In this document: piece by piece, positions 11,235 to 27,589 of the stretch
How positions within the stretch are numbered: position 1 is the first letter of the stretch
Layout of the letters: every line of letters starts with the position of its first letter
DNA from: Thermodesulfobacteriota bacterium
GTDB taxonomy: Bacteria; Desulfobacterota; WTBG01; CAIYCZ01; CAIRTM01
Direction: 5' to 3'
Assembly: GCA_028278025.1 (NCBI GenBank)
Contig: JANQFE010000094.1
Location: 5,484-69,483 of the forward strand
Length of the DNA stretch: 64,000 bases
The notes under the pieces: model-generated
What the model was told of the DNA's origin: nothing
The model's database searches: none
What the model saw: the letters and a program-made list of their open reading frames with translations, nothing else
Made by a program: the position numbers and the translations under genes

Positions 11235-14200
11235 CTATTGTTTGAGTTTTAACAATTTAAATTCCTCTATCGTACAATACAGAACCGGAACCACAAGTAT
11301 CGTAATAATAGTAAAGAACATTCCACCAAATGAGGGAATAGCCATAGGCACCATTATGTCTGAGCCCCGGCCGCTTGAGGTGAGCACAGGCAGCAGGGCC
11401 AGCATTGTTGTGGCAGTTGTCATCAAACAGGGCCGTACGCGTCGCAAGCCTGCCTCAATGGTTGCTTGACGGATTTTTTCAATTGAATCCGGCTTGTTTC
11501 TGCCAAAGGACTGATTGAGATAAGTTGCCACGACCACCCCGTTATCTGAGGCTATTCCAAACAGAGCCAGGAAGCCCACCCAGACAGCCACGCTTAGATT
11601 GACAGGATGCACCTGAAAAAGATCGCGCATGTTTGTACCAAACAAGGAAAAATCAAGAAACCCTTGCTGCGCATACAGCCAGATCATAATAAATCCTCCT
11701 GCCCATGCCACAATAATTCCCGAAAAAACCAGCAGGGTTGTCAGGGCTGATCTAAACTGGAAATATAATATGAGAAAGATAATGAAAAGTGCCAGGGGCA
11801 GAATAACTGCCAGCCTCTTTTGGGCCCGCACCTGGTTTTCATAGCTGCCTGCAAACGCAAAACTCACCCCTGCCGGCACCACAAGTTCCCCGTCTGTAAT
11901 TTTTTGCTGCAAAAATTCCTGGGCCTGCTCAACAACATCAACCTCGGCATACTCAGTTTTTTTATCAAAAAGCACATACCCTGTAAGAAAAGTATCTTCA
12001 CTTTTTATCACCTGGGGACCACGAATGTAGCGGATTTCTGCAAGCTGGATAAGCGGAATCTGAGCACCGTTTGCAGCAGGAACCAGGATTCTGCCGAGAT
12101 CTTCGATACTGTCGCGCAGCTCCCGCAGGTAGCGAATTCTTACCGGATAACGCTCACGCCCTTCCACGGTCGTGGTAATACGCCTGCCGCCGATTGCCAC
12201 CTCTATTACTTCCTGGACCTGAGCCAGTTTGATACCATAGCGGGCAATCGCTTTGCGGTTGATGTCTATTTCAAGATACGGTTTGCCCACAATGCGGTCG
12301 GCAATCACTGTTGCCGGCTCAACCATAGGCACTTCTTTCAGCAGTTTCTCCAACTGCAAACCGAAACGCTCAATGGTTTCCAGATCAGGTCCTTTGACCT
12401 TAATGCCCATGGGAGCACGCATCCCGCTTTGAAGCATAACAATACGTGCCGAAATGGGCTGCAGTACCGGGGCAGAAGTAGTTCCGGGAATCTCACCTGC
12501 TGTGACTATTTCATCCCAGATATCATCCGGACTTCTGATGCCCCCCCAGTAATCCCGGTCAGGGTTCAGCTCGGGGTCAAGCTGCGGCCGCCACAAACGA
12601 AACGGCATACCACTATCATCCGGAATAAGCCTGCCTTGATCATCGCGTACAAATGTTCCCTCTACCTTATACGGCAAACCATCCGGTGCCGGAAGCGGAG
12701 TGCCTCCTATACTGCGAACATAGTCTTCCTCATCAGGGTCAAAGCGGAAGGTAAGCCGCTGGCCGCTTTGATCGGCAATGTATTCGGGATAATAGTTTAT
12801 AACAGTCTCAATCATGGAAATCGGAGCAGGGTCAAGGGGTGTTTCAGCACGGCCCAGCTTACCCACTACAGAGCTCACCTCTGGAATATCCTTAAAAGCC
12901 ATATCCTGCTTCTGTAGCACATCCAGGGCTTCCCCAATGGAAGCATGCGGCATAGTTGTAGGCATATAGAGGTATGAGCCCTCGTCCAGCGGCGGCATAA
13001 ATTCCTTGCCCAGACCGGGAAATGTGTGCGCAACAGCAGATACAGGCGCAAACCTTTTGACCGGACCCGGCAGCCAGCCGAAAAATGAGTCAAACCCGAG
13101 CCATATCATACTGCCCAGAAAAGTAACAACTAAAGGTATAGAGATAAACGCGCTTTTGTGTGCCAGGCACCAACGTAAAATCGGTCCGTACCAGCGCTGA
13201 AAGATGTAGAAGGAGCCCAGGATACTGCCGATGAACAGCGTCACAAAAATGAAATTTCTCGTCAGACCTTTTTCAGGGCCCAGCGGCAGCCAGTGGTCAG
13301 ACAAAACCAGCCCCACAAAAAAGACTGCAGCAGCAGTACCTATCCACGGCAGCACACTTGCAATACGCTCCGGCATAAACTGCCTGATTAGATTGTAAAT
13401 ACCGATTCCGGTAATAAGCATACCGGCCCACCAGCTAAAAAAGAATATACAAACGATGCCAAGGCCGACTAAACACCAGAAAAAGAGCCTCCGGATTTTC
13501 GGCCCGTTAACGTGTCCCGAAAAAAGGATATGAGCGCAGGCCGGAAGAATGGTAAGGGCTACAATGACCGATGCAACCAGGGCAAAAGTCTTGGTGAAGG
13601 CCAGGGGTTTGAAAAGCTTGCCTTCGGCGGCCTCCATGGTAAAAACCGGCAGAAAACTGATCACGGTTGTTGCAACAGCAGTCACAACCGCACTGCCCAC
13701 TTCCCGTGATGCCCGATAGATTACTTCAAGACGATCTTCAGCAGGATCTGCCCGGTCAAGATGCTTCAGGATATTCTCACAAATGATGATCCCCATATCA
13801 ACAATTGTCCCGATGGCAATGGCGATTCCTGACAGGGCCACAATATTTGCATCAACTCCAAACACCTTCATGGCAATAAAGCACATCAGCACTGCCAGGG
13901 GCAACACTGCCGAAATAAGCACAGAGCTCCACAGATGCATCACCATAACAAGAATAACGATTATGGTTACCAGGATTTCCTCGGTGAGGGCCGTGTTAAG
14001 TGTTCCCAGGGTTTCATATATCAGGCCCGTGCGATCATAAAAGGGAACGATAGTAACCCGGCTGACAGTTCCATCGGGAAGGGTTTTCTTTGGCAAACCC
14101 GCAGAGATTTCTTCTATTTTATTCTTAATATTATTAATGGCAGCAAGGGGATTGTCACCATAGCGTACAACCACCACACCGCCGACAGCTTCGGCACCAT

Positions 14201-15128
14201 CCTTATCAAGCACACCACGCCGCAGGGCCGGTCCCAGGGTTACGTGACCGATATCTTTTACATACAACGGCACATTATCATTAACCTTGACAACGCTGTC
14301 CTCAATATCACTGAGCTGTTTAACAAAACCCAGTCCGCGTACAACATATTCAACCTTGTTGACCTCTATGGTACGTGCCCCTACATCAAGATTGGACCCC
14401 TTAACGGCCGCAATCACCTCATCAAGCCGCACATTATGAGCACGCATAGCGGCAGGATCAACATCAATCTGATATTCCTGGACAAAGCCGCCGATCGAGG
14501 CTACTTCACTTATTCCTTCGGCTGCAAGCAGACCGTAGCGCACATACCAGTCCTGGATTGATCGCAACTCATGCAGGTCCCAGCCCCCGGTCGGGCTGCC
14601 CTGATCGTCTTGCCCTTCCAGCGTATACCAGAACACCTGTCCCAGTGCGGTTGCATCAGGGCCAAGGGCGGGCTGCACACCGCCCGGCAGCAGGCCGGTC
14701 GGTAGACTGTTCAGCTTTTCAAGCACCCTGGTACGCGACCAGTAAAACTCAATCTCATCTTTGAAAATGATATATATGGTTGAAAAGCCGAACATGGAGA
14801 AACTGCGCACGGTCTTAATTCCCGGAATACCAAGCAGCGAGACCGTCAGAGGATACGAAATTTGATCCTCAATATCCTGGGGAGATCGCCCCGGCCATTC
14901 AGTAAATACAATTTGCTGGTTCTCGCCGATATCAGGTATGGCGTCAACCGGCACCGGACTGCGCGGGAAAAATCCCAGGTCCCAGTCAAAGGGTGCTACC
15001 ATCATCCCCCATCCAACTACCAGTATGACGAACAAAAACACAACTATCTTCATCTCCAGGCAGAACCTGATAAGCCGGTCAAGTATAGAAGGGTTTGTCC
15101 CGGTCCGATTGTTCTGGGCTTCACTCAT
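11235..15128 (-). CDS. cusA: CusA/CzcA-family heavy-metal efflux RND pump (long form, ~1297 aa)
   Basis: ORF 11235-15290. ATG at 15128 forms an ATGAGTGA overlap with the upstream adaptor gene's stop. IDRLIRFCLE..., VDAIPDIGENQ and MTTATT...LPV are typical HME-RND motifs. Confidence 0.9.
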   Translation of the reverse strand: MSEAQNNRTGTNPSILDRLIRFCLEMKIVVFLFVILVVGWGMMVAPFDWDLGFFPRSPVPVDAIPDIGENQQIVFTEWPGRSPQDIEDQISYPLTVSLLGIPGIKTVRSFSMFGFSTIYIIFKDEIEFYWSRTRVLEKLNSLPTGLLPGGVQPALGPDATALGQVFWYTLEGQDDQGSPTGGWDLHELRSIQDWYVRYGLLAAEGISEVASIGGFVQEYQIDVDPAAMRAHNVRLDEVIAAVKGSNLDVGARTIEVNKVEYVVRGLGFVKQLSDIEDSVVKVNDNVPLYVKDIGHVTLGPALRRGVLDKDGAEAVGGVVVVRYGDNPLAAINNIKNKIEEISAGLPKKTLPDGTVSRVTIVPFYDRTGLIYETLGTLNTALTEEILVTIIVILVMVMHLWSSVLISAVLPLAVLMCFIAMKVFGVDANIVALSGIAIAIGTIVDMGIIICENILKHLDRADPAEDRLEVIYRASREVGSAVVTAVATTVISFLPVFTMEAAEGKLFKPLAFTKTFALVASVIVALTILPACAHILFSGHVNGPKIRRLFFWCLVGLGIVCIFFFSWWAGMLITGIGIYNLIRQFMPERIASVLPWIGTAAAVFFVGLVLSDHWLPLGPEKGLTRNFIFVTLFIGSILGSFYIFQRWYGPILRWCLAHKSAFISIPLVVTFLGSMIWLGFDSFFGWLPGPVKRFAPVSAVAHTFPGLGKEFMPPLDEGSYLYMPTTMPHASIGEALDVLQKQDMAFKDIPEVSSVVGKLGRAETPLDPAPISMIETVINYYPEYIADQSGQRLTFRFDPDEEDYVRSIGGTPLPAPDGLPYKVEGTFVRDDQGRLIPDDSGMPFRLWRPQLDPELNPDRDYWGGIRSPDDIWDEIVTAGEIPGTTSAPVLQPISARIVMLQSGMRAPMGIKVKGPDLETIERFGLQLEKLLKEVPMVEPATVIADRIVGKPYLEIDINRKAIARYGIKLAQVQEVIEVAIGGRRITTTVEGRERYPVRIRYLRELRDSIEDLGRILVPAANGAQIPLIQLAEIRYIRGPQVIKSEDTFLTGYVLFDKKTEYAEVDVVEQAQEFLQQKITDGELVVPAGVSFAFAGSYENQVRAQKRLAVILPLALFIIFLILYFQFRSALTTLLVFSGIIVAWAGGFIMIWLYAQQGFLDFSLFGTNMRDLFQVHPVNLSVAVWVGFLALFGIASDNGVVVATYLNQSFGRNKPDSIEKIRQATIEAGLRRVRPCLMTTATTMLALLPVLTSSGRGSDIMVPMAIPSFGGMFFTIITILVVPVLYCTIEEFKLLKLKQ

Positions 15129-17091
15129 GGACAGGCCCTCCCGGCATACCTGCAGACAGCACCTCTTCCTGTGTTCCACACCGGAACATAGCACTCCCAA
15201 AGTAGGGATTTTCTGTTTCCTGTGACTGCTGCAGCCAGTAGGCACCTTTGTTATTAAATGCCATGGGACAATAAAAACGATAAACCGCAACCTTGCCGCT
15301 TACGCCAAACGTTTTTGTAACGGTATACATTTTGTCTGACAGTATTTCAAAATGGGTGCGGGCCTCAGCCAGAGCCTTTGCCCTGGCAATTGCCTGGGCA
15401 TATGTGTGCAGTGTTTTTTGGTCATTCATCCAGGTCATGTGCGCTTTACCGTTTAGAAGCGTCATTTCAACTTTGGTAAGACGTTTAACAAAAGTTTGTG
15501 CCCCGTCACGTGCTTCTTTAAAACTATCCTGACTCAAGGCATTGTGAACCGTGAAGTAAGCCGCCACAAGCGCATCAATCTGCTTTTTGAATATAATGCT
15601 CGTATCAAATACTTCAGGATTATTGCCGACTGCCTGTTTATCGACACCACCCTGATGCTGCTGCCCCGGCGCAGGGCCGCCGCCTTCAGGATTCATCATG
15701 CTGGGTTTTGCCAGGATCTGAACAGCACTGTCAATTTTGAAATTGCCGTTGACGACAACCTGTTCACCTTCCTTGAGACCATCCTTTACCAGGTAATAAT
15801 CTCCTGCTCGTGGACCAAGCGTGACCTCACGCCCTTCAAAAACACCCTGCTTGCCAGCAGCGGCAACATAGACCACAGCCCGCTTACCGGTAATAAGCGG
15901 AGCCGTTGCCGGAATTACAAGCGGGGCCTCTTCCCGGGTTTTATCAGCGGCAACATACCCCAGTGATTCGGTCGTAACCAGCGGCATGCCGCAGATATCA
16001 CAAATATCTTTCGATTCCTTCACAATTTCAGGATGCATAGGACAAATCCATTTGTCGCTCAGCGAAGGATCCATAACCTTACCGCCGGATGCGACCTGAG
16101 GATAGACTCGGGCGCTCACGAACATTTCAGGCTTAAGCTTTCCCTCGGGATTAGGCACATTAACGCGCACCTTGACGGTGCGGGTTTGTGAGTTAAGAAT
16201 TGGGTCAATAAATGTTATCTGACCGTTGAACACTTCACCGGGGTATGCCTTGGTTTCAAATTCAACCTTCTGACCATAGCGGATCCACACCAGATCAGAT
16301 TCATAAGCATCAAGCTTAACCCAGACATGCGAAAGATCGGCAACCGTATATATCCGTGTTCCCGTATCAACATACATCCCTTCAAAGCCGCTTTTTTGAA
16401 TAACAATGCCGCTCATGGGAGAATAAATTGTGGTGTGATCAGAAACTTTTTTGCTTCTCTCGATTTGCTTGATCTGATTTTCCGTTAGCCCCCATAAACG
16501 CAGTTTTTCTCTGGTTGCCTCAACATTTTTTTGTGTGCTCTTCAGAAGCCGCGAAGACTGGTTTTGCATCCTTTTCAGTCCGAGAAGCAGCTCCTGCTGC
16601 GTGGTAACCAGTTCCGGGCTGTAAAGAGAAACCAGATGATCACCTTTACTGACATGTGTTCCGGTATAGTCCACAAAGAGCCGGTCAATACGCCCCGGCA
16701 CCCATGCGGTAATATAAGACAGGCGAGTCTCGTCATACTCAATTTTACCGTCCATTCTAATCTCTGCGGTTACAAACTTTCGTTCAACCGGGGCGGTCTG
16801 AATATCTGCCAGCTTCATCGCCCGCTCAGATAATCTGTGCTCGCGCAGCCCCAGAGCCTCGTTACTATCTCCGCCTGAGACCGGAATCAGATCCATTGCA
16901 CAAATCGGGCATTGCCCGGGGCCGGGCTGCCGTATCTGAGGATGCATAGAACACGTCCAGAATTCAATTTGATTCTCCTGTTGGACAGCATGCTCATGCA
17001 CCCCTGGCTTGTCACCGCCGCCCCGTATGATGAAACCCAGAATAAAAGCAACGATTATGAATCCCGGAACCAGAAATTTCGATTTTTTCAT
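15121..17091 (-). CDS. cusB: RND periplasmic adaptor (CusB-like) with two CxxC heavy-metal-binding inserts
   Basis: MKKSKF signal/anchor start at 17091. WTCSMHPQIRQPGPGQCPICAMDL and WICPMHPEIVKESKDICDICGMPL. Barrel-sandwich hybrid core (TIYSPMSGIV, VVVNGNFKIDS). Confidence 0.8.
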   Translation of the reverse strand: MKKSKFLVPGFIIVAFILGFIIRGGGDKPGVHEHAVQQENQIEFWTCSMHPQIRQPGPGQCPICAMDLIPVSGGDSNEALGLREHRLSERAMKLADIQTAPVERKFVTAEIRMDGKIEYDETRLSYITAWVPGRIDRLFVDYTGTHVSKGDHLVSLYSPELVTTQQELLLGLKRMQNQSSRLLKSTQKNVEATREKLRLWGLTENQIKQIERSKKVSDHTTIYSPMSGIVIQKSGFEGMYVDTGTRIYTVADLSHVWVKLDAYESDLVWIRYGQKVEFETKAYPGEVFNGQITFIDPILNSQTRTVKVRVNVPNPEGKLKPEMFVSARVYPQVASGGKVMDPSLSDKWICPMHPEIVKESKDICDICGMPLVTTESLGYVAADKTREEAPLVIPATAPLITGKRAVVYVAAAGKQGVFEGREVTLGPRAGDYYLVKDGLKEGEQVVVNGNFKIDSAVQILAKPSMMNPEGGGPAPGQQHQGGVDKQAVGNNPEVFDTSIIFKKQIDALVAAYFTVHNALSQDSFKEARDGAQTFVKRLTKVEMTLLNGKAHMTWMNDQKTLHTYAQAIARAKALAEARTHFEILSDKMYTVTKTFGVSGKVAVYRFYCPMAFNNKGAYWLQQSQETENPYFGSAMFRCGTQEEVLSAGMPGGPVHE

Positions 17092-17168
17092 AAAAAACCT
17101 CACATTGTTTACAGAAACAATCATTTGTGAAGCAGAACACTCTCATAGTGCACAGAATTCTTCACCCC

Positions 17169-17441
17169 TTACTTCTTTTCTGCGACCGGCGGTGCTTTTG
17201 GGATATCAACTCCTTCAGCTTTCATCGTTTTGATGTACTTCTCCGGATTTTTCTCAAAAGTGGCTATGCAGCCCGGGCAGCAGAAATAAATCCGTTCGCC
17301 GTTATAATCACTAAAGACTTCCTTATTAATTGTACCGCCCATAACCGGACAGACTGTTTGCTCTTTTGCATAAACCATCTCTGCACCGAGCAGTGTAACT
17401 GAAAAAAAAATAAACATGATCAGAGTTGCTGTTTTTTTCAT
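17169..17441 (-). CDS. secreted YHS/TRASH-type metal-binding protein
   Basis: Signal peptide, then CPVMGGTINKEVFSDYNGERIYFCCPGCIATFEKNPEKY, which matches the YHS pattern. Confidence 0.8.
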   Translation of the reverse strand: MKKTATLIMFIFFSVTLLGAEMVYAKEQTVCPVMGGTINKEVFSDYNGERIYFCCPGCIATFEKNPEKYIKTMKAEGVDIPKAPPVAEKK

Positions 17442-17554
17442 GATAATTCTCCTAGCTTTTTTTATGGTTTTTAGTTTTTATTCATCAGCTATTATTTACT
17501 CTTTCTACACTTTGCTATCATCTTAAACCGTAATCCAAATTCCAAAATCTGCAA

Positions 17555-18901
17555 TTAGAACAGACTTTTCCCCATGACTACTTCCAGAGCAGCCAGGTCT
17601 TTCTCATAATCGGTCATTACCTTGCGATATTGGATCTCATAATTAAAAAGCGTAATTTGGCTGTCAAGCAGTGTCAGAAAATCAATTTTACCGACCCTGT
17701 AAGCTTCAATAGCAGCATCAAGGCTCTGGCCGGCCTGGGGAATGATGCTGTCTTTATACAGTGCGATGAGATCCTTACCCCGGATAATCCTGGCATACAG
17801 ATCACTGGTTTTAAAAAAAATATCATTCCTGACGCTTTCATAGCGTGAGCGTGATTGTGCAATTCGATGGTAGGCCTCAGCAACACCCCGGTTTTGCTTA
17901 CTCTTAAACCACAGGGGAACATTGACCCCCACTAAAAGTGTGAACAAACTCGGTCTCTCGGTGTCAAAATCCAGAGGGCGCGTTGTAACCTCATTCACAT
18001 TGCCCTGAGCATCAGTAATCCGTGATTTGCTTGAAGTTGCATGCGGTCGTTTGTCACGCTGCCCATAGGCGGCTGTAACAGTAAACTTGGGGAAATACAT
18101 CTTTTTCGCCAGAGCATGCTCTGCTTCGGTTTTTTTTATGTCGTGCTGCAGGGCCTGCAGCAGTGCATTTTCAGCCAGGACAATTTCTTCAAGCTCATGT
18201 TTTTCAAACGCAAACTGCGTAACCTGTAAGGCCGGGCTGCCTTCCAAAGCAGCCGACGGCGCACGGTTTAGAAGAGTGTTCAGCTCTGCTTGCAGGGTCT
18301 CCTTTTGCTGTCTGAGGTCTATCAGTTTTTCCTGCATTTTATACAGCTCAACCTGGGCCTTGAGAATATCTTCCTGGAGGCCTTCACCAACTTCATACTT
18401 TGCCTGGCTTATTTCCACAAATTCATTAAGCAGCTTCTCATTAGCCTCAGTTATCTTAAGTGCCTCGTTAACAAAAAAAATCTGGTAGTAAGCTTTTTTA
18501 ACACTGCTGACAATGTTTAACCTAATATCCTCCAATTCGCTTTCTGCGCCCTTGGCAGTTTCAATGGCCGCCTTTTCCCGAAGTGATGTTACGCCGAAAA
18601 AGGGAATATTCTGCTTAATGGCGACATACTTCTGGGTCATATCCTGGGTGTCAAAATCAAAATCATCGGTAGGCACATTGCTCACTCCGAAAGTTAACAG
18701 GGGATCATCCCAGGCTTTAACCTGGGCAGGGCGCTCCCATAGGGCATCCTTTCTTTTCTGGAAGACCATTATTTCAGGATTGTTTGCCAGGGCTTCCTCA
18801 ATGAGAACATTCAGGTTTAAAATATTTTCCGCACAACACTGGCTGTATATAACAAGCAAAGGTATAGTGCAAAACGTAACAAATAAACTAATTTTCTTCA
18901 T
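17555..18901 (-). CDS. TolC-family outer-membrane efflux protein (CusC-like)
   Basis: 448 aa with a signal peptide and two coiled-coil repeats with conserved turn regions. Lies upstream of the YHS-cusB-cusA genes on the same strand. Confidence 0.8.
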   Translation of the reverse strand: MKKISLFVTFCTIPLLVIYSQCCAENILNLNVLIEEALANNPEIMVFQKRKDALWERPAQVKAWDDPLLTFGVSNVPTDDFDFDTQDMTQKYVAIKQNIPFFGVTSLREKAAIETAKGAESELEDIRLNIVSSVKKAYYQIFFVNEALKITEANEKLLNEFVEISQAKYEVGEGLQEDILKAQVELYKMQEKLIDLRQQKETLQAELNTLLNRAPSAALEGSPALQVTQFAFEKHELEEIVLAENALLQALQHDIKKTEAEHALAKKMYFPKFTVTAAYGQRDKRPHATSSKSRITDAQGNVNEVTTRPLDFDTERPSLFTLLVGVNVPLWFKSKQNRGVAEAYHRIAQSRSRYESVRNDIFFKTSDLYARIIRGKDLIALYKDSIIPQAGQSLDAAIEAYRVGKIDFLTLLDSQITLFNYEIQYRKVMTDYEKDLAALEVVMGKSLF

Positions 18902-19226: not shown

Positions 19227-19631
19227 TTATAGGAGAAAGGAAGAGGTAAACAAAAAAAGGTGAGCATCTACAGAATAGAAATGTTTTACTGAAAATAAAT
19301 TTTGCGTTGATTGCTGATACTTGTTGTTATCATTACAGTTCCGTTTATAAAAGGAGAGCAATTCTTTTTGTACGGGTAACCGATTGCAGGTAAATAATTT
19401 ATAATACTCAATTGGTGCACTGATACTGCAAGTGCAGTGTCTGGCTTTTGAGATATCATCCGGTTCCAGCGGCAGTGCGTCTTCCCGGGTATTCTCTTTG
19501 CAGCCGCAACAGCACTCCATTTTCAAACAGCACGAACAGCTTGTCTGAACCTTCTGTGCCAGAACAGGCGTATGCCAGGCTACTAGCAAAATAATTATTA
19601 TCATTAAGGAAAATGTTTTACAGTTTCGCAT
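19227..19631 (-). CDS. hypothetical secreted Cys-rich protein
   Basis: ATG 19631 gives MRNCKTFSLMIIIILLVAWHTPVLAQ (signal peptide), then SCSCCLKMECCCGCKEN, with 8 Cys in 14 residues. Confidence 0.5.
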   Translation of the reverse strand: MRNCKTFSLMIIIILLVAWHTPVLAQKVQTSCSCCLKMECCCGCKENTREDALPLEPDDISKARHCTCSISAPIEYYKLFTCNRLPVQKELLSFYKRNCNDNNKYQQSTQNLFSVKHFYSVDAHLFLFTSSFLL

Positions 19632-19796
19632 GTCGTATGATGCTTGCAGCATAATATGTTGTTATTTCTTTACTTTACAATATATATTGTAGAACCTTTT
19701 ATCACAATGTCAAGAAGTATCAAAAACGTATCCTAATGGATCCTGCATTTTCATCTTTCGGACAAAGTCACATTATCATTACTTTTTTTAGATGTG

Positions 19797-20699
19797 TTAT
19801 GCAACAGCCCTTCCCAGGGCGATAAAAAGATGCCGCGTATTGACTCCCGGATCACTTTTCTCTTTGGCTATTGTCTCTGTAGAATCGATAATTTTTTGAA
19901 TCCTCGTTTGAGTCATATTTTTATTAAGAAGCAGTGCAGACAGTGCCTGAAGCGTGTGTTCACACCACAGGCTGTGGGTCATTTTATCGACCTGCTCAAC
20001 ACAGTTATTCAGATCTTTTTCTACGGCCTGCTCCTCACACTCAGCCCCAAATACCGGATCGCATTCCAGACAGGCTGCATAGTGAATCATAACGTCCCCG
20101 TCCTCCTTCGGTGTTTTATCTTCAAAAGGGCTATATTCAGGGTTTTTGGCCATTTCTGCTGCAGCAATGTCAATGATGGTTGTAGTTACCCCTTTAAGGC
20201 CCCCTTGTTTGGCCATCTTTTTGCGCAGTGCTTCCGGCCCGACAACCTCTTCACTTTTTGCAGAATTTTTGACGAGTTCTTCAGCCATGGCCTGTATCTT
20301 GAGAGCCGACTCAAGGGGGACAGTGCCGTCTGAAAGTGCCGAGCTTAAATTGAACCGGGCATGACAGCACCAGGGCACTGTCTCGGACTGCCGCAGTTTC
20401 TCACGATGCAAACCGCTCACATACTGATTGGCCTTACACATTTCGCGCAGATCCTTGTTGCACCGACGACACATGTTGATATACATTAACGCCCTTTCCG
20501 GTATCCAGCCCGTGTCGCGCTTCTTCTCAAAAGTAGCTATGGAATCTTTCTGAAACTGCTGTTCACCCGCTTCTTCGCGGTATTTGCTGATACAGGCCGA
20601 TGAACAGTACCTGCGCTCATTGAGCTCGATTGGGTAGTGGGTTGACTGCCCGCATATAACACATATATGCTGTTGGCCGTTTTTTGTATCAGTGCTCAT
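19797..20699 (-). CDS. TRASH/FCS-type zinc-ribbon protein with two CCH/CxH helical modules, paralog B
   Basis: N-terminus CVICG-x15-YCSSAC. Internal PWCCHARFNLSSALSDGTV and LWCEHTLQALSALLL. Collinear with the protein at 22318-23142. Confidence 0.6.
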   Translation of the reverse strand: MSTDTKNGQQHICVICGQSTHYPIELNERRYCSSACISKYREEAGEQQFQKDSIATFEKKRDTGWIPERALMYINMCRRCNKDLREMCKANQYVSGLHREKLRQSETVPWCCHARFNLSSALSDGTVPLESALKIQAMAEELVKNSAKSEEVVGPEALRKKMAKQGGLKGVTTTIIDIAAAEMAKNPEYSPFEDKTPKEDGDVMIHYAACLECDPVFGAECEEQAVEKDLNNCVEQVDKMTHSLWCEHTLQALSALLLNKNMTQTRIQKIIDSTETIAKEKSDPGVNTRHLFIALGRAVA

Positions 20700-20729
20700 G
20701 ACTTCTCCTCCCGTCTTACGCTTTACGTT

Positions 20730-20963
20730 TTACGCTTCACCTTCTATTCTGTATCCATGGGACTCAATGGCTCGTATAAATACGTCCCTCGAATAGTCTG
20801 CAGGAGAATACACTACGGTAACACTTTTACCAGCCAGACTTACCCGGTACTCTATACCATCAAACTTCCTGAATTCATTCTCGAGTGTACGCGCACAACC
20901 AACGCAGGTCATATTACCAATCACAAATGTTTCCTCAATTTTTTCTTCAGCCATCGTACTCAT
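20730..20963 (-). CDS. heavy-metal-associated (HMA) domain metallochaperone
   Basis: 77 aa with GNMTCVGCARTLE (MxCxxC) and a ferredoxin-like fold pattern. Confidence 0.85.
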   Translation of the reverse strand: MSTMAEEKIEETFVIGNMTCVGCARTLENEFRKFDGIEYRVSLAGKSVTVVYSPADYSRDVFIRAIESHGYRIEGEA

Positions 20964-20977
20964 ACCCCCTTACTATC

Positions 20978-21379
20978 TTACCCTTCTACACCACAGAGGA
21001 CCTGATAATCATTTTGTATCCTTTCGATCGTGGCCTCACGCTGCATCCTGCTCCTGGTATTTAAGTACGTATCGCGCAGTTCTGTATCGGCAAGCACCTT
21101 TTCCAGTTCAGCAGCCAGATTGTTCGGGTTTTGAACCGGCACCAGGGAATCAACGGTTTTGAAAGCTTTTACCGAGGGATCATCAGGAGACAGTTGTTTA
21201 ACTTCAGTTGCACCGCCACAGGGGATGCAGCATGGTTTAAGATTCTTACATTCAGCGGCTTTACTGCCAACCACAAAAATAGTGCTTTCCTGAACCCGTA
21301 CAATAGTTGGAATAATCAGGTCAATAAACCAGCCGATCTCAAACATAAAATAATAGCCGTCTTCGATGCGGGCCATCAC
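20978..21379 (-). CDS. hypothetical protein with a KPCCIPCGG motif
   Basis: 133-aa ORF. AGGAG lies upstream of the ATG. Sits inside a co-directional operon. No family recognised. Confidence 0.5.
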   Translation of the reverse strand: MMARIEDGYYFMFEIGWFIDLIIPTIVRVQESTIFVVGSKAAECKNLKPCCIPCGGATEVKQLSPDDPSVKAFKTVDSLVPVQNPNNLAAELEKVLADTELRDTYLNTRSRMQREATIERIQNDYQVLCGVEG

Positions 21380-21391
21380 CTGCTCCTGAGT

Positions 21392-22294
21392 CTACAGTTT
21401 CCCAACATTTTTCAGGTGCTCAAAGATAGGATTGATACCGGTTCGGTTGATCACAAAATTAAAATGGTCTTCATGCCGGTCGCTCCATTCCTTTTTAATC
21501 AGGTCAACACAGGCTTCCAGGATGGGAAAAATCGTGTCAGTATCGGTTATTTTATAAAGTTCTCTACCGTATTGCGCAAAACGACCAAAGGTCCCGCCCA
21601 CCATAATCCGACAGCCCTTTTCCGCAGCAGCAAGGGTACCCGTTGGGCACACCCTGATACAATCACCGCAGACCTTGCAGTAATCTTCGTTAATGACCGG
21701 CTGACCGTCTTGCAGGCTGACAACGCGGTCAAGGCAGGTCTTAACACAGCTTTCACACTGAATGCATTCTTCGTCAGTAACCACCGGTTTGGCAGTCCCA
21801 TGAATACCTACTTCCTTTGATTCGGATGCCGTACAGATATTTGAACACCCCGAGATGGAAACAGTGAAGGTGCTGTGAGGCATGAGCACTTCAGCGGATT
21901 TATCTGCTAAAATCTCGGTTATTTTAAGCTCTTCCATCTTCTGTTTGATCTTTGGGCCCAGCTCCCTGACATTAATCAGGTCGCGGTCACATCCGAAAAA
22001 ACGCGAATGACACAGTTCAATCGTGTAAAGCGCCGGGTCCTTGTTGAGCCCGATCTCGGGGTCAAGCTCTGTGTCGGATTTGCCCTCTTCGCGGGTGGCC
22101 TGAATCTTGGCAATCTTTTCCGGGCCGAAATGTTCAAAATAGTCATCCCTGGTCTGCATCATTTCTTTCATAGTCACCATTTCACTGTTGTTTTGACGGG
22201 CCAGTTTTTCAGCCCATATGATAATCAAATTTTTTATTATGTCATGGATTGGAATGCTGTCCACAATATCTCTGGCATCTTGTTCCCATTTCAT
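21392..22294 (-). CDS. small Dsr/Asr-like Fe-S protein with an N-terminal PCP_red-like helical domain
   Basis: ATG 22294 lies 7 nt after AGGAG. N-terminus WEQDARDIVDSIPIHDIIKNL..AEKLARQ. SISGCSNICTAS, then CIQCESCVKTC and CKVCGDCIRVCP (ferredoxin insert), then VGGTFG, as in sulfite-reductase C-terminal modules. Confidence 0.6.
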   Translation of the reverse strand: MKWEQDARDIVDSIPIHDIIKNLIIIWAEKLARQNNSEMVTMKEMMQTRDDYFEHFGPEKIAKIQATREEGKSDTELDPEIGLNKDPALYTIELCHSRFFGCDRDLINVRELGPKIKQKMEELKITEILADKSAEVLMPHSTFTVSISGCSNICTASESKEVGIHGTAKPVVTDEECIQCESCVKTCLDRVVSLQDGQPVINEDYCKVCGDCIRVCPTGTLAAAEKGCRIMVGGTFGRFAQYGRELYKITDTDTIFPILEACVDLIKKEWSDRHEDHFNFVINRTGINPIFEHLKNVGKL

Positions 22295-22317
22295 ATGCAA
22301 ACTCCTGTAAATTATTT

Positions 22318-23142
22318 TTATTTTTTTACGGAACGTGCAGTAGCCAGATAGTGAATCCGATACTGTCCGCCTTTGAAGTTTTTCTCTCGTGCTACTTTTT
22401 TGCTTTTTTCAATAAGTTTTTTAACTTTTTCTTTGTCAACCTTGGGGTCCAGCAGCATGGCGGCCATGTCATACTTGGCGTGCCCGCAATAGGGAAAATC
22501 AAGCATCTGCTCAATCTCTGGCAAATGTGCTTCAGCCTCTTCAGTGAACTTCAAACATTCATCCTGGAATTTCTTATCACAATTCACACAGGCCAGATAA
22601 TGTTCATGCTCCTGTTTAGGCGGGTCCGGCCTGTTCTCCGGCCCCGGCAAATAGCTGAAATCCTCAATAAGCTCCCCCTCGGCCATTGAGAGCACCGCCG
22701 GACTTATGCCCTTGTAGCCTTTCTCCCGTGAAATATTCTCGGCGCGCGCCATGATTTTTTTTACGGTACCCATACTCACTGACCCGTCGGACAGCATACA
22801 GCTCAAGCCGAAGATGGCATGACAGCACCAGCGCATGGTTATATACTCATGCAGCTCTTCAAAATAAGCGCCGCAGAACTCCCGCACCTTGCGGCATTTC
22901 AGTGGAAAAGGGCATTTCATACAGGTGTTCATAAACCGCCCGATAACATCACCCAGCTCATTAAAATCTATTTTTTCCATATCAAGATTTTCCATACGCT
23001 CCCGGTTGACTTCAGCACAGTAAATTGAACAATACAGATTGCCCATCCGCTTAATGGGTTTTTTAGTAATAACGCCGTTGCAGACAGCACAACGCTGCTC
23101 GTCGTGGTTTAGCTGCTCTTTTTCTTGAGTTTGCTTAGTCAT
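22318..23142 (-). CDS. TRASH/FCS-type zinc-ribbon protein with two CCH/CxH helical modules, paralog A
   Basis: N-terminus CAVCNG-x16-YCSIYC. Internal RWCCHAIFGLSCMLSDGSV and YCGHAKYDMAAMLLD. First gene of the operon divergent from csoR. Confidence 0.6.
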   Translation of the reverse strand: MTKQTQEKEQLNHDEQRCAVCNGVITKKPIKRMGNLYCSIYCAEVNRERMENLDMEKIDFNELGDVIGRFMNTCMKCPFPLKCRKVREFCGAYFEELHEYITMRWCCHAIFGLSCMLSDGSVSMGTVKKIMARAENISREKGYKGISPAVLSMAEGELIEDFSYLPGPENRPDPPKQEHEHYLACVNCDKKFQDECLKFTEEAEAHLPEIEQMLDFPYCGHAKYDMAAMLLDPKVDKEKVKKLIEKSKKVAREKNFKGGQYRIHYLATARSVKK

Positions 23143-23174
23143 GCTGATAAGACCTTCCTTTACAATTTCTCAAG

Positions 23175-23203
23175 TTGACAGATATATGATTTTGATTTAT
23201 AGT
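23175..23203 (+). promoter_or_regulatory. sigma70-type promoter of csoR-copZ-copA
   Basis: TTGACA (23175-23180), a 17-nt spacer, then TATAGT (23198-23203). Confidence 0.6.
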
Positions 23204-23231
23204 ATACATATACTATACCCCTGTAGGGTAT
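23201..23231. promoter_or_regulatory. CsoR-type operator (ATACCC-N5-GGGTAT) plus an adjacent AGTATA-CA-TATACT palindrome
   Basis: ATACCC at 23215-23220 and GGGTAT at 23226-23231 form an inverted repeat just downstream of the -10 box. A second perfect palindrome at 23201-23214 overlaps the -10 box. Confidence 0.6.
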
Positions 23232-23253
23232 GTCAAGAGCTGAAGGAGGAAAA

Positions 23254-23535
23254 ATGATTAACGAGGCGGTTAAAAAAGATGCCCTGTCGAGGCTTAAAAA
23301 AATTGAAGGACAGGTCCGCGGTATCATGAAAATGATAGATGCCGAAAAGTACTGTATTGACATCATAAATCAGATTACCGCGGCGGAAAAGGCCCTTGAC
23401 GGTGTAGCAAAAATTGTGATGAAGCGTCATGTTGAAAGCTGTGTGAGCAATTCAATCAGGCAGGGTGAAGGCCAGGATAAAATTGATGAGCTTATAGAAA
23501 CGGTTTTTAAGGTTTCTAACAGACGCAAAGGTTAG
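23254..23535 (+). CDS. csoR: CsoR-family copper-sensing transcriptional repressor
   Basis: ATG 23254 follows GGAGGA. RLKKIEGQVRGI, YCIDI (Cys) and RHVESC (His, Cys) give the C-H-C ligand pattern of CsoR/DUF156. Confidence 0.85.
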   Translation: MINEAVKKDALSRLKKIEGQVRGIMKMIDAEKYCIDIINQITAAEKALDGVAKIVMKRHVESCVSNSIRQGEGQDKIDELIETVFKVSNRRKG

Positions 23536-23574: not shown

Positions 23575-23787
23575 ATGCAAAAAACATTAAGCGTGGACGG
23601 TATGACCTGCGAACACTGTGTCAAGCGAGTTAAAAAAATTATCGAAAAATTTGACGGGGTGTCTGATGTAACCGTCAGCCTGGACGCCAAAGAGGCTGCT
23701 TTTGCCTGTGATCCGGCCCAAACAGATGTTGGTGTGGTTGTACAGGCAATTAATGATTTTGGGTATGCCGCGGTAGAAAAAACGTAA
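23575..23787 (+). CDS. copZ: copper chaperone, HMA domain
   Basis: ATG 23575 follows AAAGGAG. Contains GMTCEHCVKRV. Confidence 0.85.
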   Translation: MQKTLSVDGMTCEHCVKRVKKIIEKFDGVSDVTVSLDAKEAAFACDPAQTDVGVVVQAINDFGYAAVEKT

Positions 23788-23934: not shown

Positions 23935-26637
23935 ATGCAGCAAACAAAAACCATCCCTGTCTACGGCATGACCTGCGGCCACTGCGTCAAAGCCGTTACC
24001 ATGGCGCTTGAGGATATCGAAGGGGTTAATGAGACCACCGTCTCGCTTGATGAATCTTGTGCTACGGTAACATTTGACGACAGCAAAACAGACCTTGATG
24101 CCCTCAGGGATGCAATTGCTGAAGAGGGCTACAGCTTTGAACCCCGGGATCAAAACACAGAACCATGTGCAACTATGCAGACAGAAGAAGCTGCACTGAC
24201 GGTGCTTCCTGCTGCAACAACTGTTTCCCGCTTTTCCATAGAGGGAATGTCCTGTGTTAACTGTGCTGCTGCCATAGAGAAGGGGTTTACAGACGTTCCG
24301 GGCATAGGAAAAGCCTCCGTCAATTTCCCCCTAGAGTGCCTGGTTGTTGAGCATGATAGTTCCGTAACACCTGAAGACATCTGCAATAAAGTGGCCGATA
24401 TCGGCTATGAAGCCTCAGCGATAGAAGAACAGGAAGAGGACTCAATTGCCTTTAGGATCGAAGGCATGTCATGCGTTAACTGTGCTGCTTCTATTGAAAA
24501 GGCCTTTGCCAAAGCTCCCGGTATAAAAAACGTCTCTATAAATTTTTCCCTGGAAAAAGGTTTTATCACGTTTGACAGGTCCACAACCGACAAGCAGGCG
24601 GTTTTGCATGTGGTAAGCGATGCAGGGTATGTGGCTTTTGAAGAAAAAGAAGAAAAGGCAAAATCTCCACTTGCAAAAAAGGAACGTTTCCGGTTTCTGT
24701 TTGCACTTATTTGTACGATCCCGCTGGTTCTGTTAATGTATACAATGCCCTTTGGACATGTGGGGACCAACTATGCAATGTTTGTGCTGGCTACGCTTGT
24801 TCAGTTTGTTTCCGGACGCTCTTTCTATGAAGGAGCCTATCACTCACTAAAAAACCGTTCAACCAATATGGACGTACTCATCTCCCTGGGAATCTCGGCT
24901 GCTTACTTTTACAGCGTTTTTTCTCTGTTCTTTCTGGATCCCCATGCCCATACCTTCTTTGACAGCTCAGCCATGCTGATTACGTTTATCCTGGTGGGTA
25001 AAATGCTTGAGGCTCGGGCTAAAGGCAAAACCGGCCAAGCCCTTGAAAAAATGTTGTCGCTGCAGGCTGACCGGGCCAGAATCCTGCAGGACGGCACAGA
25101 GCTGATGGTGCCGGCTTCCTCAGTGAAGGTCGGTGACCTGGTTCTGGTACGACCCGGTGAAAAGATACCGGTTGATGGTGAAATTGTTGACGGCACAACA
25201 GCAGTTGATGAATCCATGCTGACCGGAGAGTCGATACCGGTTGAGAAGCAGGCCGGTGCACAGGTTACGGGCGCTACCATTAATACAACCGGTGCAATTA
25301 CCGTCAGAACCGGCCGGGTGGGAAAAGATACGGTGCTTGCCCAGATCATAAAGATGGTTGAAGATGCCCAGGCAGACAAAGCACCCATACAGCGGCTTGC
25401 AGATATTGTCTCCAACTACTTTGTACCGATTGTCGTAACAGTTGCCCTTGTTACGTTCAGCCTGTGGTTTTTTGTTTTTGACGTTACCCCTCCGGCAGGC
25501 TCTACCCGCTTTTTGTTTGCCTTTCAGCTCATGATTGCAGTGCTGGTAATTGCCTGCCCCTGTGCCCTGGGCCTTGCCACTCCCACGGCTATTATGGTAG
25601 GCAGCGGCGTAGGTCTAAACCGCGGTATTCTGTTTAAACGCGCCTCTGTTCTTGAAAATATTTCCAAACTGGAAGTTATATTGTTTGACAAAACCGGCAC
25701 GATTACAGTCGGCAGGCCGGAAGTTGTAGGTGTTTACCCCTATGAAAATTATTCGGAAGATGAAGTGCTCAAAATTGCAGCAGGCGCAGAGGCTCATTCT
25801 ACCCATCCCCTGGCTCAAGCCGTCGTAAGGAAAGCCGGTGTAAAAAATCTTTCCATAGAAAAAGGCCGTGATGTGCATGAGGTCAGCGGTCATGGCATCC
25901 AGTGTGTTGTGCAGGGAGAGGTAATAAAAACAGGCAGTTTGAAGTATGTCAGTGAAAAACAAGATCCGCCCCCGGAGATTATAGACCTGGGCCGCAAACT
26001 TTCTGAAGAAGGCAAGACAACCATCTATGTCGCCCAGAACAATAGTATAATCGGTATACTTGCACTCTCTGATGTGATTAAAACAGATTCACAAGAGGCT
26101 GTCGGCAAGCTTCACCGGTTCGGTATTCGCACCGGCCTCATTTCAGGTGATAACCACGCGGTGGCCCGGACTGTTGCAGCCGAGGTGGGTATTGATGCGG
26201 TAGAGGCCGAGGTGCTGCCCGAGGACAAAATAGATAGTGTTAAGAAATGGCAGCAAAAGGGGTACCGGGTCGGTATGGTCGGGGACGGCATCAATGATGC
26301 ACCGGCACTGGCTCAGGCTGATATGGGCATTGCCATTGGTTCTGGAACTGATGTTGCTAAAGAAACCGGTGATGTGATTTTGGTAAAAAACAGTCTGTTG
26401 GATGTGGAGCGGGCCATACGCTTAGGGAAAAAGACCCTGCGAACCATTAAAGAGAATTTTTTCTGGGCATTTTTCTATAATATCCTTATGATTCCGGTTG
26501 CTGCAGGTGCTTTATATCCTGTTACTGGTTTGACCTTAAAACCTGAGTGGGCCTGTATTGCCATGTGGTTTTCATCTCTAACAGTAGTTGGTAATTCCCT
26601 TTTGCTGAGGCGGTTTGGCAGAAAACTTGCTGAATGA
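23935..26637 (+). CDS. copA: copper-translocating P1B-type ATPase with three N-terminal HMA domains
   Basis: Three GMxCxxC domains (GMTCGHC, GMSCVNC twice), [29 protein letters not shown]. Confidence 0.95.
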
Positions 26638-26662: not shown

Positions 26663-27589
26663 TTACATCTTCTGCATTACCGATACACAATTTCCACCGG
26701 CAGATTTACTCTGATACATCAGCTCATCAGCCCTTTTAATAACTGATTCAACCGTATCCCCGGAATTCACGAGTGTTGCACCAATGGAAACAGTTATGTG
26801 AACATTTTTTGAATCAATAGCAAAACCGGATTCCCCTACAAGAATACAAAGCTTTTCTGCAATTGCGTGTAACTGATCTTGTTTCACATTTACCAAAACT
26901 GCTACAAATTCTTCACCACCCCACCGGTTTACCGTATCAAAGGAACGCACATTGTTTGACAATGTTTTGGCCACCATCTTAATTGCTTTATCGCCGATAG
27001 CATGACCAAAGGTATCATTGATTCTTTTAAAACCATCAATATCGATAAAAAGAATCCCAAAATTCCAGCCATACCGGTTCAGTTCATCAAGCCTTGAATT
27101 TATGGTTATTTCAGCGTAGCGCCTGTTGCCCAACTCAGTAAGAGGATCGTTTAAGGCCATTTCCTGCAATTCTTCGATCCTTTGCAGAATTGCAGTCTTT
27201 GCAGAGTTATCACTGAACACAACAACGGCTCCCAGGACTTTTCCCCGGGCATCTTTAACAGGTGCAAAATAGGATAATACCGGGATGCGGTGCCCATCTT
27301 TATGATGGATATACAGCTTTTTCTCCCGCTTTTTACCATCAGCGATGGTTTTCTCAGATGGACAAAAATGCTTACAAAGGTGCCGTCCCTTATCGTTTAC
27401 ATGCATAAGAATATTATCCTCACATGACTTACCCATAACTGCAGAGGATTTGTACCCGGTGAGTTTCTCGGCACCATTGTTCCAATAGGTAATCTTTTTA
27501 TTGCGGTCTACCAGATAGACCCCGTCATAGAGGTGGTCAAAAAGTCTTTTATAAAAATCATTATCAAATGCCGTAGGGTTTTCTGTCAT
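26663..27589 (-). CDS. PAS-domain diguanylate cyclase
   Basis: N-terminal PAS (ITYWNNGAEKLTGY) and C-terminal GGDEF domain with RWGGEEF. Confidence 0.85.
   Translation of the reverse strand: MTENPTAFDNDFYKRLFDHLYDGVYLVDRNKKITYWNNGAEKLTGYKSSAVMGKSCEDNILMHVNDKGRHLCKHFCPSEKTIADGKKREKKLYIHHKDGHRIPVLSYFAPVKDARGKVLGAVVVFSDNSAKTAILQRIEELQEMALNDPLTELGNRRYAEITINSRLDELNRYGWNFGILFIDIDGFKRINDTFGHAIGDKAIKMVAKTLSNNVRSFDTVNRWGGEEFVAVLVNVKQDQLHAIAEKLCILVGESGFAIDSKNVHITVSIGATLVNSGDTVESVIKRADELMYQSKSAGGNCVSVMQKM

Follow-up and report, generated by a model that had tools for sequence, protein, structure and literature searches.

The genes described here are five Cys-rich genes on the minus strand, at 19797-23142 of a 64,000-nucleotide (nt) stretch of contig JANQFE010000094.1 from a Thermodesulfobacteriota bacterium; the whole stretch is called the window. 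They are divergent from the copper-sensor gene csoR and from copZ and copA, and they encode the paralog A, a Dsr-like Fe-S protein (NIRSIR), a small protein with a KPCCIPCGG motif (p133), an HMA-domain chaperone (HMA77) and the second paralog, B (Table 1). An earlier note, made from the sequence alone, had described five tightly spaced genes sharing the 111-bp csoR region, and this layout was confirmed: the open reading frame (ORF) list gives inter-gene gaps of 23, 15, 14 and 30 nt, and the region between csoR and A (23143-23253) is 111 bp given the csoR start at ATG 23254. Inspection of the sequence found a Shine-Dalgarno-like sequence before all five genes, and no signal peptide was found in any of the five proteins. 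The motifs that the note had quoted are all present in the translations of A, NIRSIR, p133 and HMA77.

Table 1. Coordinates of the five genes, their regulatory elements and the neighbouring copper genes, in positions of the window (aa, amino acids).
Feature	Position	Strand	Description
Paralog A	22318-23142	-	274 aa; Cys4 knuckle and two Cys/His helical modules
NIRSIR (Fe-S protein)	21392-22294	-	300 aa from ATG; TTG at 22300 gives 302 aa
p133	20978-21376	-	132 aa; KPCCIPCGG in the window copy
HMA77	20730-20963	-	Second CopZ-like chaperone, MTCVGC; PF00403 E 2.7e-11
Paralog B	19797-20699	-	300 aa; A-type architecture, extra insert of ~20 aa in module 1
CsoR-type operator	23215-23231		Perfect 17-bp palindrome ATACCCCTGTAGGGTAT
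Sigma-70-like promoter for csoR-copZ-copA	23175-23203	+	TTGACA-17-TATAGT, 11/12 consensus match
Putative gene A promoter	23208-23236	-	-35 TTGACA at 23236-23231, 18-nt spacer, -10 TATATG
csoR	23254-23535	+	93 aa; Cu(I)-type, C-H-C ligand set; PF02583 E 8e-28
copZ	23575-23787	+	HMA, MTCEHC; orthologues adjoin csoR in all related loci
copA	23935-26637	+	P1B-type Cu(I) ATPase with HMA domains; orthologues 62-73% identical in related loci
Secreted Cys-rich small protein	19227-19652	-	141 aa; signal peptide, CSCCLKMECCCGC cluster, hydrophobic C-terminus
OEP (outer-membrane factor)	17555-18901	-	Cus-like efflux genes
Periplasmic YHS protein	17169-17441	-	90 aa; YHS Pfam E 6.8e-9
CusB	15121-17124	-	Cus-like efflux; unusually long, 667 aa
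CusA	~11235-15128	-	Cus-like efflux

The start of csoR is most likely ATG 23254, with the ribosome-binding site GAAGGAGG. For the operator palindrome in the intergenic region, the chance expectation was 0.15 matches per window with up to 3 mismatches allowed. Among the related loci fetched from other genomes and metagenomes (named L001 and so on), sites of the TACCC-N5-GGGTA type were found at the equivalent position in L004, L005, L011, L013, L017, L018, L019 and L020, and near-variants in L001, L002, L009 and L010. The operator sits immediately downstream of the plus-strand csoR promoter, an arrangement that can also be read in the intergenic sequence of L002. On the other strand, the -35 element of the putative gene A promoter abuts the palindrome and the operator occupies the spacer of this promoter; the same layout, with TTGACA, about 18 nt holding the operator and then TATAxx, is kept in L002, L005, L009, L010, L011 and L017. 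The CsoR protein carries the ligand set KYC...H-x3-C (KYC and RHVESC in the sequence), which is of the Cu(I) type, and its best NCBIfam match was RicR. Taken together, the palindrome, the conserved operator and promoter layout and the Cu(I)-type sensor mean that CsoR control of both divergent transcription units is well supported in silico. A second, imperfect operator-like palindrome at 32070-32086, ATGCCCCTGCAGGGGAT, with 3 mismatches, lies within an ORF and is probably there by chance.

The five genes are made up of three separately conserved modules, namely the A/B paralogs (with a third subfamily, C, in other loci), the NIRSIR-p133 pair and the HMA77-B pair, which recur in the CsoR/CopZ/CopA/Cus islands of uncultured Thermodesulfobacteriota. 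Of 15 distinct loci with paralog A, 14 have csoR, copZ, copA, cus or YHS genes no more than 10 kb away from it. A and csoR are immediate divergent neighbours in the window and in L001, L002, L005, L009, L010 and L082, three of these (L001, L005 and L009) having none of the other accessory genes, and A is found inside the cus operon in L004, L011, L013, L015 and L017. In most cases HMA77 has B as its partner: B comes immediately after it in L002/L003, L035, L039, L048, L066, L067 and L082, and the B orthologues that follow HMA77 in other loci are 71-81% identical to B. The assignment of the fourth gene to the HMA family stood, as it matches the Pfam model (Table 1). Only one of the fetched loci, L082, repeats the order of the window, with C as an extra gene (copA-copZ-csoR divergent from A-C-NIRSIR-p133-HMA77-B-OEP-YHS-CusB), and the order recurs in part in L010 and L025.

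A fixed five-gene system, as the earlier note had proposed, was therefore rejected because the modules are found independently of each other: NIRSIR-p133 occurs in L018, L019 and L020 without A or B in the stretches fetched, and A occurs alone elsewhere. With regard to conservation as a unit, the set is a mosaic, while each of its pieces is faithful to copper islands. The view that these are copper-linked genes, very probably under the control of CsoR, was borne out at the level of sequence by the Cu(I)-type CsoR, by the conserved operator and gene A promoter, and by the position of the modules beside csoR, copZ, copA and cus genes. In L018 (2925-3705), L013 and L017, csoR, OEP, copA and A appear fragmented or duplicated by frameshifts, which could be assembly errors or real pseudogenes.

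The linkage of NIRSIR-p133 to copZ and copA is the most robust and the most surprising result of this analysis. Scanning metagenomes with a p133 profile gave 60 loci, mostly on contigs of about 2.4 kb, and a recognisable copper gene was present on 41 of these 60 contigs. Of the 46 loci that extend far enough to show the preceding gene, 45 have NIRSIR directly upstream of p133 and in the same orientation. On the other side of p133, the first downstream gene (51 loci) was CopZ-like in 22, HMA77 in 5, CopA in 5, NIRSIR2 (a second NIRSIR paralog) in 5 and unidentified in 14, so that a CopZ-like, HMA77 or CopA gene follows p133 in 32 of 51 loci. L019 has csoR-OEP-cusB-cusA-NIRSIR-p133-copZ-copA on one strand, L018 has copZ-copA-NIRSIR-p133-NIRSIR2 and L020 has copZ-copA-NIRSIR; neither A nor B was found within the fetched stretch of any of these three loci. 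NIRSIR2 is 44-49% identical to NIRSIR and is often found after p133 (L018, 8642-9535; L034, L035, L038, L041, L046 and L068), while in L025 it follows HMA77; the window has a single NIRSIR copy. By analogy with DsrA/DsrB, this hints at a heteromeric NIRSIR/NIRSIR2 pair.

The translation of NIRSIR contains W..DA....IP, SGCSNIC, two CxxCxxCxxxC motifs and GGTFG, and Pfam identified NIR_SIR and Fer4 domains (E 1e-9). Its closest sequence match in the PDB was the C-terminal part of the F420-dependent sulfite reductase Fsr (7np8), with E 2.5e-18 for the single sequence and E 1.6e-35 for the profile, and the alignment starts only at about residue 122-126 of NIRSIR, which corresponds to 441-443 of Fsr. 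Upstream of this point, residues 5-49 gave a sub-threshold match to PCP_red (Pfam E 0.022), and Pfam detected no N-terminal NIR_SIR_ferr repeat at E up to 0.1. Across 70 NIRSIR homologues, all 12 cluster cysteines are invariant; the invariant positions include C95, C102, C150, C154, the eight ferredoxin Cys and H140, and H96 is present in 69 of the 70. The coupled-cluster motif of siroheme reductases is C-x5-C...C-x3-C. C150-x3-C154 of NIRSIR aligns with C468/C472 of Fsr, and the invariant C95-x6-C102 upstream is unaligned to Fsr. NIRSIR most probably holds three [4Fe-4S] clusters.

According to the paper on the Fsr structure, sulfite is bound by Arg355, Arg423, Lys460 and Lys462, four residues described there as perfectly conserved among the sulfite reductases (bioRxiv 10.1101/2022.04.07.487323). 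Both Lys460 and Lys462 align to Thr in NIRSIR, the Thr equivalent to Lys462 being invariant in family alignments of 70 and 30 sequences, and the segment that would carry the two Arg residues is missing, the region being unaligned with a PCP_red-like domain in its place. NIRSIR also scored far under the cut-offs of all the equivalogs (AsrC, 68 bits against 324). As the sulfite-binding Lys residues are Thr and the N-terminal siroheme repeat has been replaced, NIRSIR is very unlikely to reduce sulfite, and it is a derivative of the C-terminal half of the group-III Dsr-like architecture (PMC3448663) that has lost the sulfite-binding residues. The likeness to the cluster-binding part of sulfite reductases, pointed out in the earlier note, held only for the C-terminal cluster and ferredoxin part, which aligns to Fsr. 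The names "anaerobic sulfite reductase subunit C" and "PFOR delta subunit" that NIRSIR-type proteins carry in the source databases are automatic.

More distant NIRSIR relatives are found in other surroundings. Those at 39% and 29% identity, distant members of the family with PCP_red, NIR_SIR and ferredoxin parts, adjoin genes for ferredoxin-dependent bilin reductases (L006, 4497-6128; L022, 7001-8635), and the one in L022 also has a coproporphyrinogen oxidase gene beside it. These neighbours suggest a sister clade linked to tetrapyrroles. In L002 (1-1071), a 30%-identical homologue lies by a DUF364/DUF4213 protein, with the copper genes of the locus some 7 kb away.

For p133, no Pfam or NCBIfam family was found, and its 34 clusters carry no informative name (hypothetical where named). 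The segments YFMFEIGWF.DL and KPCC.P.GG are invariant. The KPCCIPCGG motif was correctly noted before; the protein has 132 aa and not the 133 aa first given, and the third Cys of the motif is not conserved. The AlphaFold2 model of p133 is moderate (pLDDT 73), with the Cys-Cys pair on an unstructured loop of lower confidence (residues 41-50, mean 58), and Foldseek against the PDB gave no match with E below 0.001.

A and B are 26% identical over their full length (E 9e-34) and are true paralogs of one architecture, as had been proposed. Proteins of the third subfamily, C, are about 276 aa long and 37% identical to B. The proteins of this family begin with a knuckle, C-x2-C-x16-YCS-x2-C (C18, C21, C38 and C42 in A), followed by a duplicated module in which C-x2-C-x5-7-C-x22-[WY]C-x-H is combined with a three-helix domain ending AxEKG..G; A has WCCHA in one module and YCGHA in the other. 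The internal duplication is significant (hhalign probability 98%, E 3e-14). The residues scored as invariant were C18, C21, C38, C42, C74, C77, C83, C106, H108, H181, C185, C188, C196, C219 and H221, and in the alignment eleven Cys and three His are invariant across the A-subfamily members and B. The earlier assignment of these proteins to TRASH stood as far as the Cys4 motif is concerned, which fits the C-x2-C-x(16-22)-C-x3-C pattern with FCS/YCS of TRASH/YHS domains. With E values up to 0.1 allowed, however, neither A nor B was matched by a Pfam model for TRASH or YHS, and the knuckle gave only sub-threshold matches to the prokaryotic metallothionein model Metallothio_Pro (E 0.007; E 0.02 for the B-subfamily representative P0153). 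In the AlphaFold2 model of A, the knuckle is a beta-hairpin (strands 30-32 and 35-37) followed by a helix (40-51).

That neither the paralogs nor p133 can be assigned to anything known, as the earlier note had stated, was confirmed by the searches. No Pfam or NCBIfam family was found for A and B. A word-indexed search with the A family gave 42 clusters without an informative name (hypothetical where named), and when 1.84 billion representatives were searched in full with an HMMER profile, just 41 proteins came up, of which many are fragments. Among 185,579 species genomes there were 10 loci, in metagenome-assembled genomes of Thermodesulfobacteriota/"delta proteobacteria" and in one Spirochaetota single-cell genome, and a tblastn search of A and p133 against 72,556 plasmids gave no match. 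The model of A is of good quality (pLDDT 86.6, pTM 0.83), and Foldseek found no PDB match to it with E below 0.001. A PDB sequence search with A returned nothing at E up to 10, and when PDB sequences were searched with a profile of the duplicated module, nothing beyond noise such as designed helical repeats was matched, and neither YtfE nor PCP_red appeared.

The local Foldseek matches of A with the highest probability were the PCP_red domains 2l09 and 2kru, with TM 0.64-0.67 over 54-58 residues and probability 0.63-0.77, but with E above 1. A C-subfamily protein matched PCP_red in Pfam at E 0.006, which is below the significance threshold, and with a hidden Markov model (HMM) of the NIRSIR N-domain the A, B and C proteins ranked next behind the true hits (E 0.13-10). 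In the distant relatives P0185 and P0186, WCCHA is replaced by W-[DE]-x-K-A-E. Taken together, these observations make a PCP_red-like origin of the helical modules of A, B and C plausible, though unproven; the hhalign probability for PCP_red was 43% over 20 columns. P0186 is the most distant full-length relative of A and B (E 1.5e-6) and keeps the TRASH-like knuckle without the CCH motif. The C-terminal extension of the Spirochaetota homologue P0021 was also considered as a PCP_red domain and was dropped (hhalign probability 0.2%).

The five genes are the proximal part of a copper-detoxification island of about 15 kb, at about 11.2-26.6 kb of the window. The gene order OEP-YHS-CusB-CusA (11235-18901) is repeated in L001, L002, L004, L005 and L082. 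The CusB orthologues in related loci have two HMBD domains and DUF3347 in the precomputed Pfam annotation, and the periplasmic YHS-domain protein precedes CusB in the slot expected for CusF. The gene of the secreted 141-aa protein lies directly upstream of OEP, behind a strong promoter-like site of its own (TTGACA-16-TACAAT, 19713-19686). Its equivalent slot is filled by weak homologues in L001, L004, L005 and L018, and the similar protein in L002 is 131 aa long. The protein may bind copper in the periplasm as a partner, so far undescribed, of the Cus-like pump. At the other end of the island, a 308-aa ORF (26663-27589, minus strand), convergent with the end of copA, looks from its translation like a PAS + GGDEF protein.

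The copper link of the five genes is well supported, while the biochemistry of their products is what we infer: that A and B bind Cu(I), that electrons flow from NIRSIR to p133, and what the substrate is. The interpretation that we favour, at somewhat better than even chances, is that CsoR derepresses cytoplasmic proteins that bind and hand off Cu(I) through thiolates, together with a three-cluster protein that transfers electrons to a Cys-Cys carrier, and that both support efflux by CopA and Cus. Cu(I) on CsoR would release csoR-copZ-copA and the minus-strand genes from one operator, and the minus-strand transcription may run on as far as the genes for Cus-like efflux. With three Cys4(His)-type sites per protein, A and B (in other loci also C) would bind Cu(I), either buffering it or handing it on. 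The pairing of an HMA metallochaperone gene with B points to metal transfer, and HMA77 could be a dedicated CopZ-like shuttle that serves B. NIRSIR would pass low-potential electrons to the invariant Cys-Cys loop of its obligate partner p133. In this way the thiols that handle copper, or a species such as a Cu-thiolate, a disulfide or a persulfide, would be kept reduced, and CopA and Cus could go on exporting Cu(I).

Several observations weigh against this interpretation. The -10 element of the minus-strand promoter is weak, and on that account the gene A promoter was missed by the promoter scanner. All the relatives are from uncultured organisms. The gene of P0186 (L023 and L024, 7001-7882) abuts an SBP_bac_5 (Nik/Opp-type) ABC-transporter operon and no copper operon, and the NIRSIR relatives at 46% identity or less are without copper linkage, the 46% one having no copper neighbours. 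Paralog A is conserved at 57-80% identity with non-ligand positions included, as would be expected of a protein that does more than passively soak up metal. In A and B, the Cys4 sites resemble Zn sites of the structural treble-clef kind, and Zn or Fe-S could occupy them equally well. It is also counter-intuitive that an Fe-S protein with exposed clusters should be induced under copper stress.

Copper damages solvent-exposed [4Fe-4S] clusters, and Fe-S clusters are a prime target of it. NIRSIR and p133, perhaps with A and B, could serve in Fe-S protection, repair or replacement, by rebuilding or replacing a copper-sensitive Fe-S or tetrapyrrole-dependent function, and would then not handle copper themselves. 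The three clusters predicted in NIRSIR and the bilin reductase and coproporphyrinogen oxidase genes beside its distant relatives would fit this explanation, as would the match of the C-subfamily protein P0157 to ScdA_N, the N-terminal domain of the RIC iron-centre repair protein (E 0.029, residues 104-126, with WCCH at 105-108). However, the ScdA_N match lies under the threshold and did not recur in a search of PDB sequences, no domain of the di-iron or scaffold kind was found, and the tight linkage is to CopZ and CopA and not to suf or isc genes, and we regard this explanation as unlikely. The other function considered for NIRSIR, a sulfite (or nitrite) reductase making sulfide that precipitates copper as CuS, would agree with the NIR_SIR match and with the automated names such as "anaerobic sulfite reductase subunit C". 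It was rejected as a true sulfite reductase on the two Lys-to-Thr positions, one of them invariant in the family, and on the PCP_red-like domain that stands in place of the Arg-bearing segment, with no NIR_SIR_ferr detected and an AsrC score far from its cut-off. The sulfide-linked copper detoxification that the earlier note had offered as an example is therefore disfavoured by the test of the sulfite-binding residues, and we give it very little credence.

Another, not very probable explanation concerns A, B and C, which may not bind copper but could be redox or adaptor proteins with Zn or Fe-S, for example electron-transfer partners or assembly factors, either of NIRSIR or of the efflux system. 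Their C-x2-C...C...C(H) sites are like structural treble-clef sites, the fold of A is well ordered and strongly conserved at non-ligand residues, and their helical modules weakly resemble the N-terminal PCP_red domain of NIRSIR. On the other hand, many islands with A have no NIRSIR nearby (L005, L009 and L004), and the partner of B is an HMA metallochaperone gene. There is also a more novel joint claim, which we consider decidedly doubtful as a whole. NIRSIR, p133 and an HMA chaperone would form a new ferredoxin-type, Fe-S-dependent reductase relay for anaerobic copper detoxification, while Cys-decorated PCP_red-like domains would make A, B and C a Cu(I)-binding class of their own, new to science. 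What was once the siroheme pocket of NIRSIR, a degenerate sulfite reductase, would in remodelled form reduce copper, or a Cu-thiolate or Cu-persulfide adduct, carried on the mobile Cys-Cys loop of p133, the outcome being, for example, exportable Cu(I) freed from Cu-S species, or Cu(0), in a relay analogous to the NmerA domain and Cys-Cys tail of MerA.

The usual account of bacterial copper defence comprises sensing, chaperoning, efflux and sometimes sequestration, and is based mainly on aerobic and facultative organisms. Copper islands under CsoR control are a known type of system, and the accessory modules of this one are new; in the literature searched, neither the A/B/C proteins nor p133 were described, nor was any copper operon with a Dsr-like Fe-S component. 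The copper-efflux operons of uncultured relatives of sulfate reducers repeatedly hold two kinds of undescribed protein, the NIRSIR-p133 pair and a rare Cys/His-rich family. As copper readily attacks Fe-S clusters, a copper-induced Fe-S protein implies that anaerobic, sulfidic copper defence may include a redox step that is missing from current models. In addition, the naming of NIRSIR-type proteins as sulfite reductase subunit C or PFOR delta subunit can distort the counts of sulfur-cycle genes in metagenomes.

Among known systems, the cytoplasmic proteins that sequester Cu(I) are MymT, CutC, CopZ and Csp3, some of which are under a copper sensor (PMC11672702, a 2024 review). The island is like the CsoR/RicR regulons, such as RicR-MymT of M. 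tuberculosis, in having a Cu(I) sensor, a GC-rich palindromic operator, divergent copZ-copA and Cys-rich cytoplasmic proteins that share their regulation with efflux (PMC11672702). Unlike MymT and Csp3, A and B are ordered multi-domain proteins of 270-300 aa with three discrete Cys4(His) sites and no thiolate-lined bundle, and the sequence and fold searches of the PDB with A gave no match to MymT, Csp3 or CutC. The knuckle is like the treble-clef knuckles of the TRASH, YHS and SmtA type in its C-x2-C-x16-(Y)CS-x2-C spacing, its modelled beta-hairpin and helix and its copper-operon context. TRASH was reportedly the subject of work by Ettema et al. in 2003 on archaeal CopM/CopT. The A/B proteins differ from TRASH and YHS proteins in matching no Pfam model of these domains, and the knuckle is just the first 45 or so residues of a larger, novel architecture.

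NIRSIR shares the C-x3-C of the siroheme-coupled cluster, the inserted 2x[4Fe-4S] ferredoxin and the GG(T/K)xGR segment with the C-terminal half of group III Dsr-LP, AsrC and Fsr. Unlike these proteins, it has a PCP_red-like domain and a C-x6-C linker for the N-terminal repeat and Thr for both anion-binding Lys residues, and its gene is found in copper operons with that of a small Cys-Cys protein. In DsrAB-DsrC, a redox enzyme works with a small protein that has a reactive Cys pair on a flexible arm, and in MerA an HMA domain (NmerA) feeds a vicinal Cys-Cys pair. The pairing of NIRSIR with p133, and of an HMA protein with a Cys pair, recalls these two systems as a functional analogy only, since p133 has no homology to DsrC or MerA, and no flavin or siroheme site is evident. 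The last comparison is with PCP_red (PF08369), the C-terminal domain of BchB/ChlB (2kru, 2l09), which the N-terminus of NIRSIR and the modules of A and C match below the threshold only. Unlike PCP_red itself, the A/B modules bear an added Cys knuckle and the [WY]C-x-H motif.

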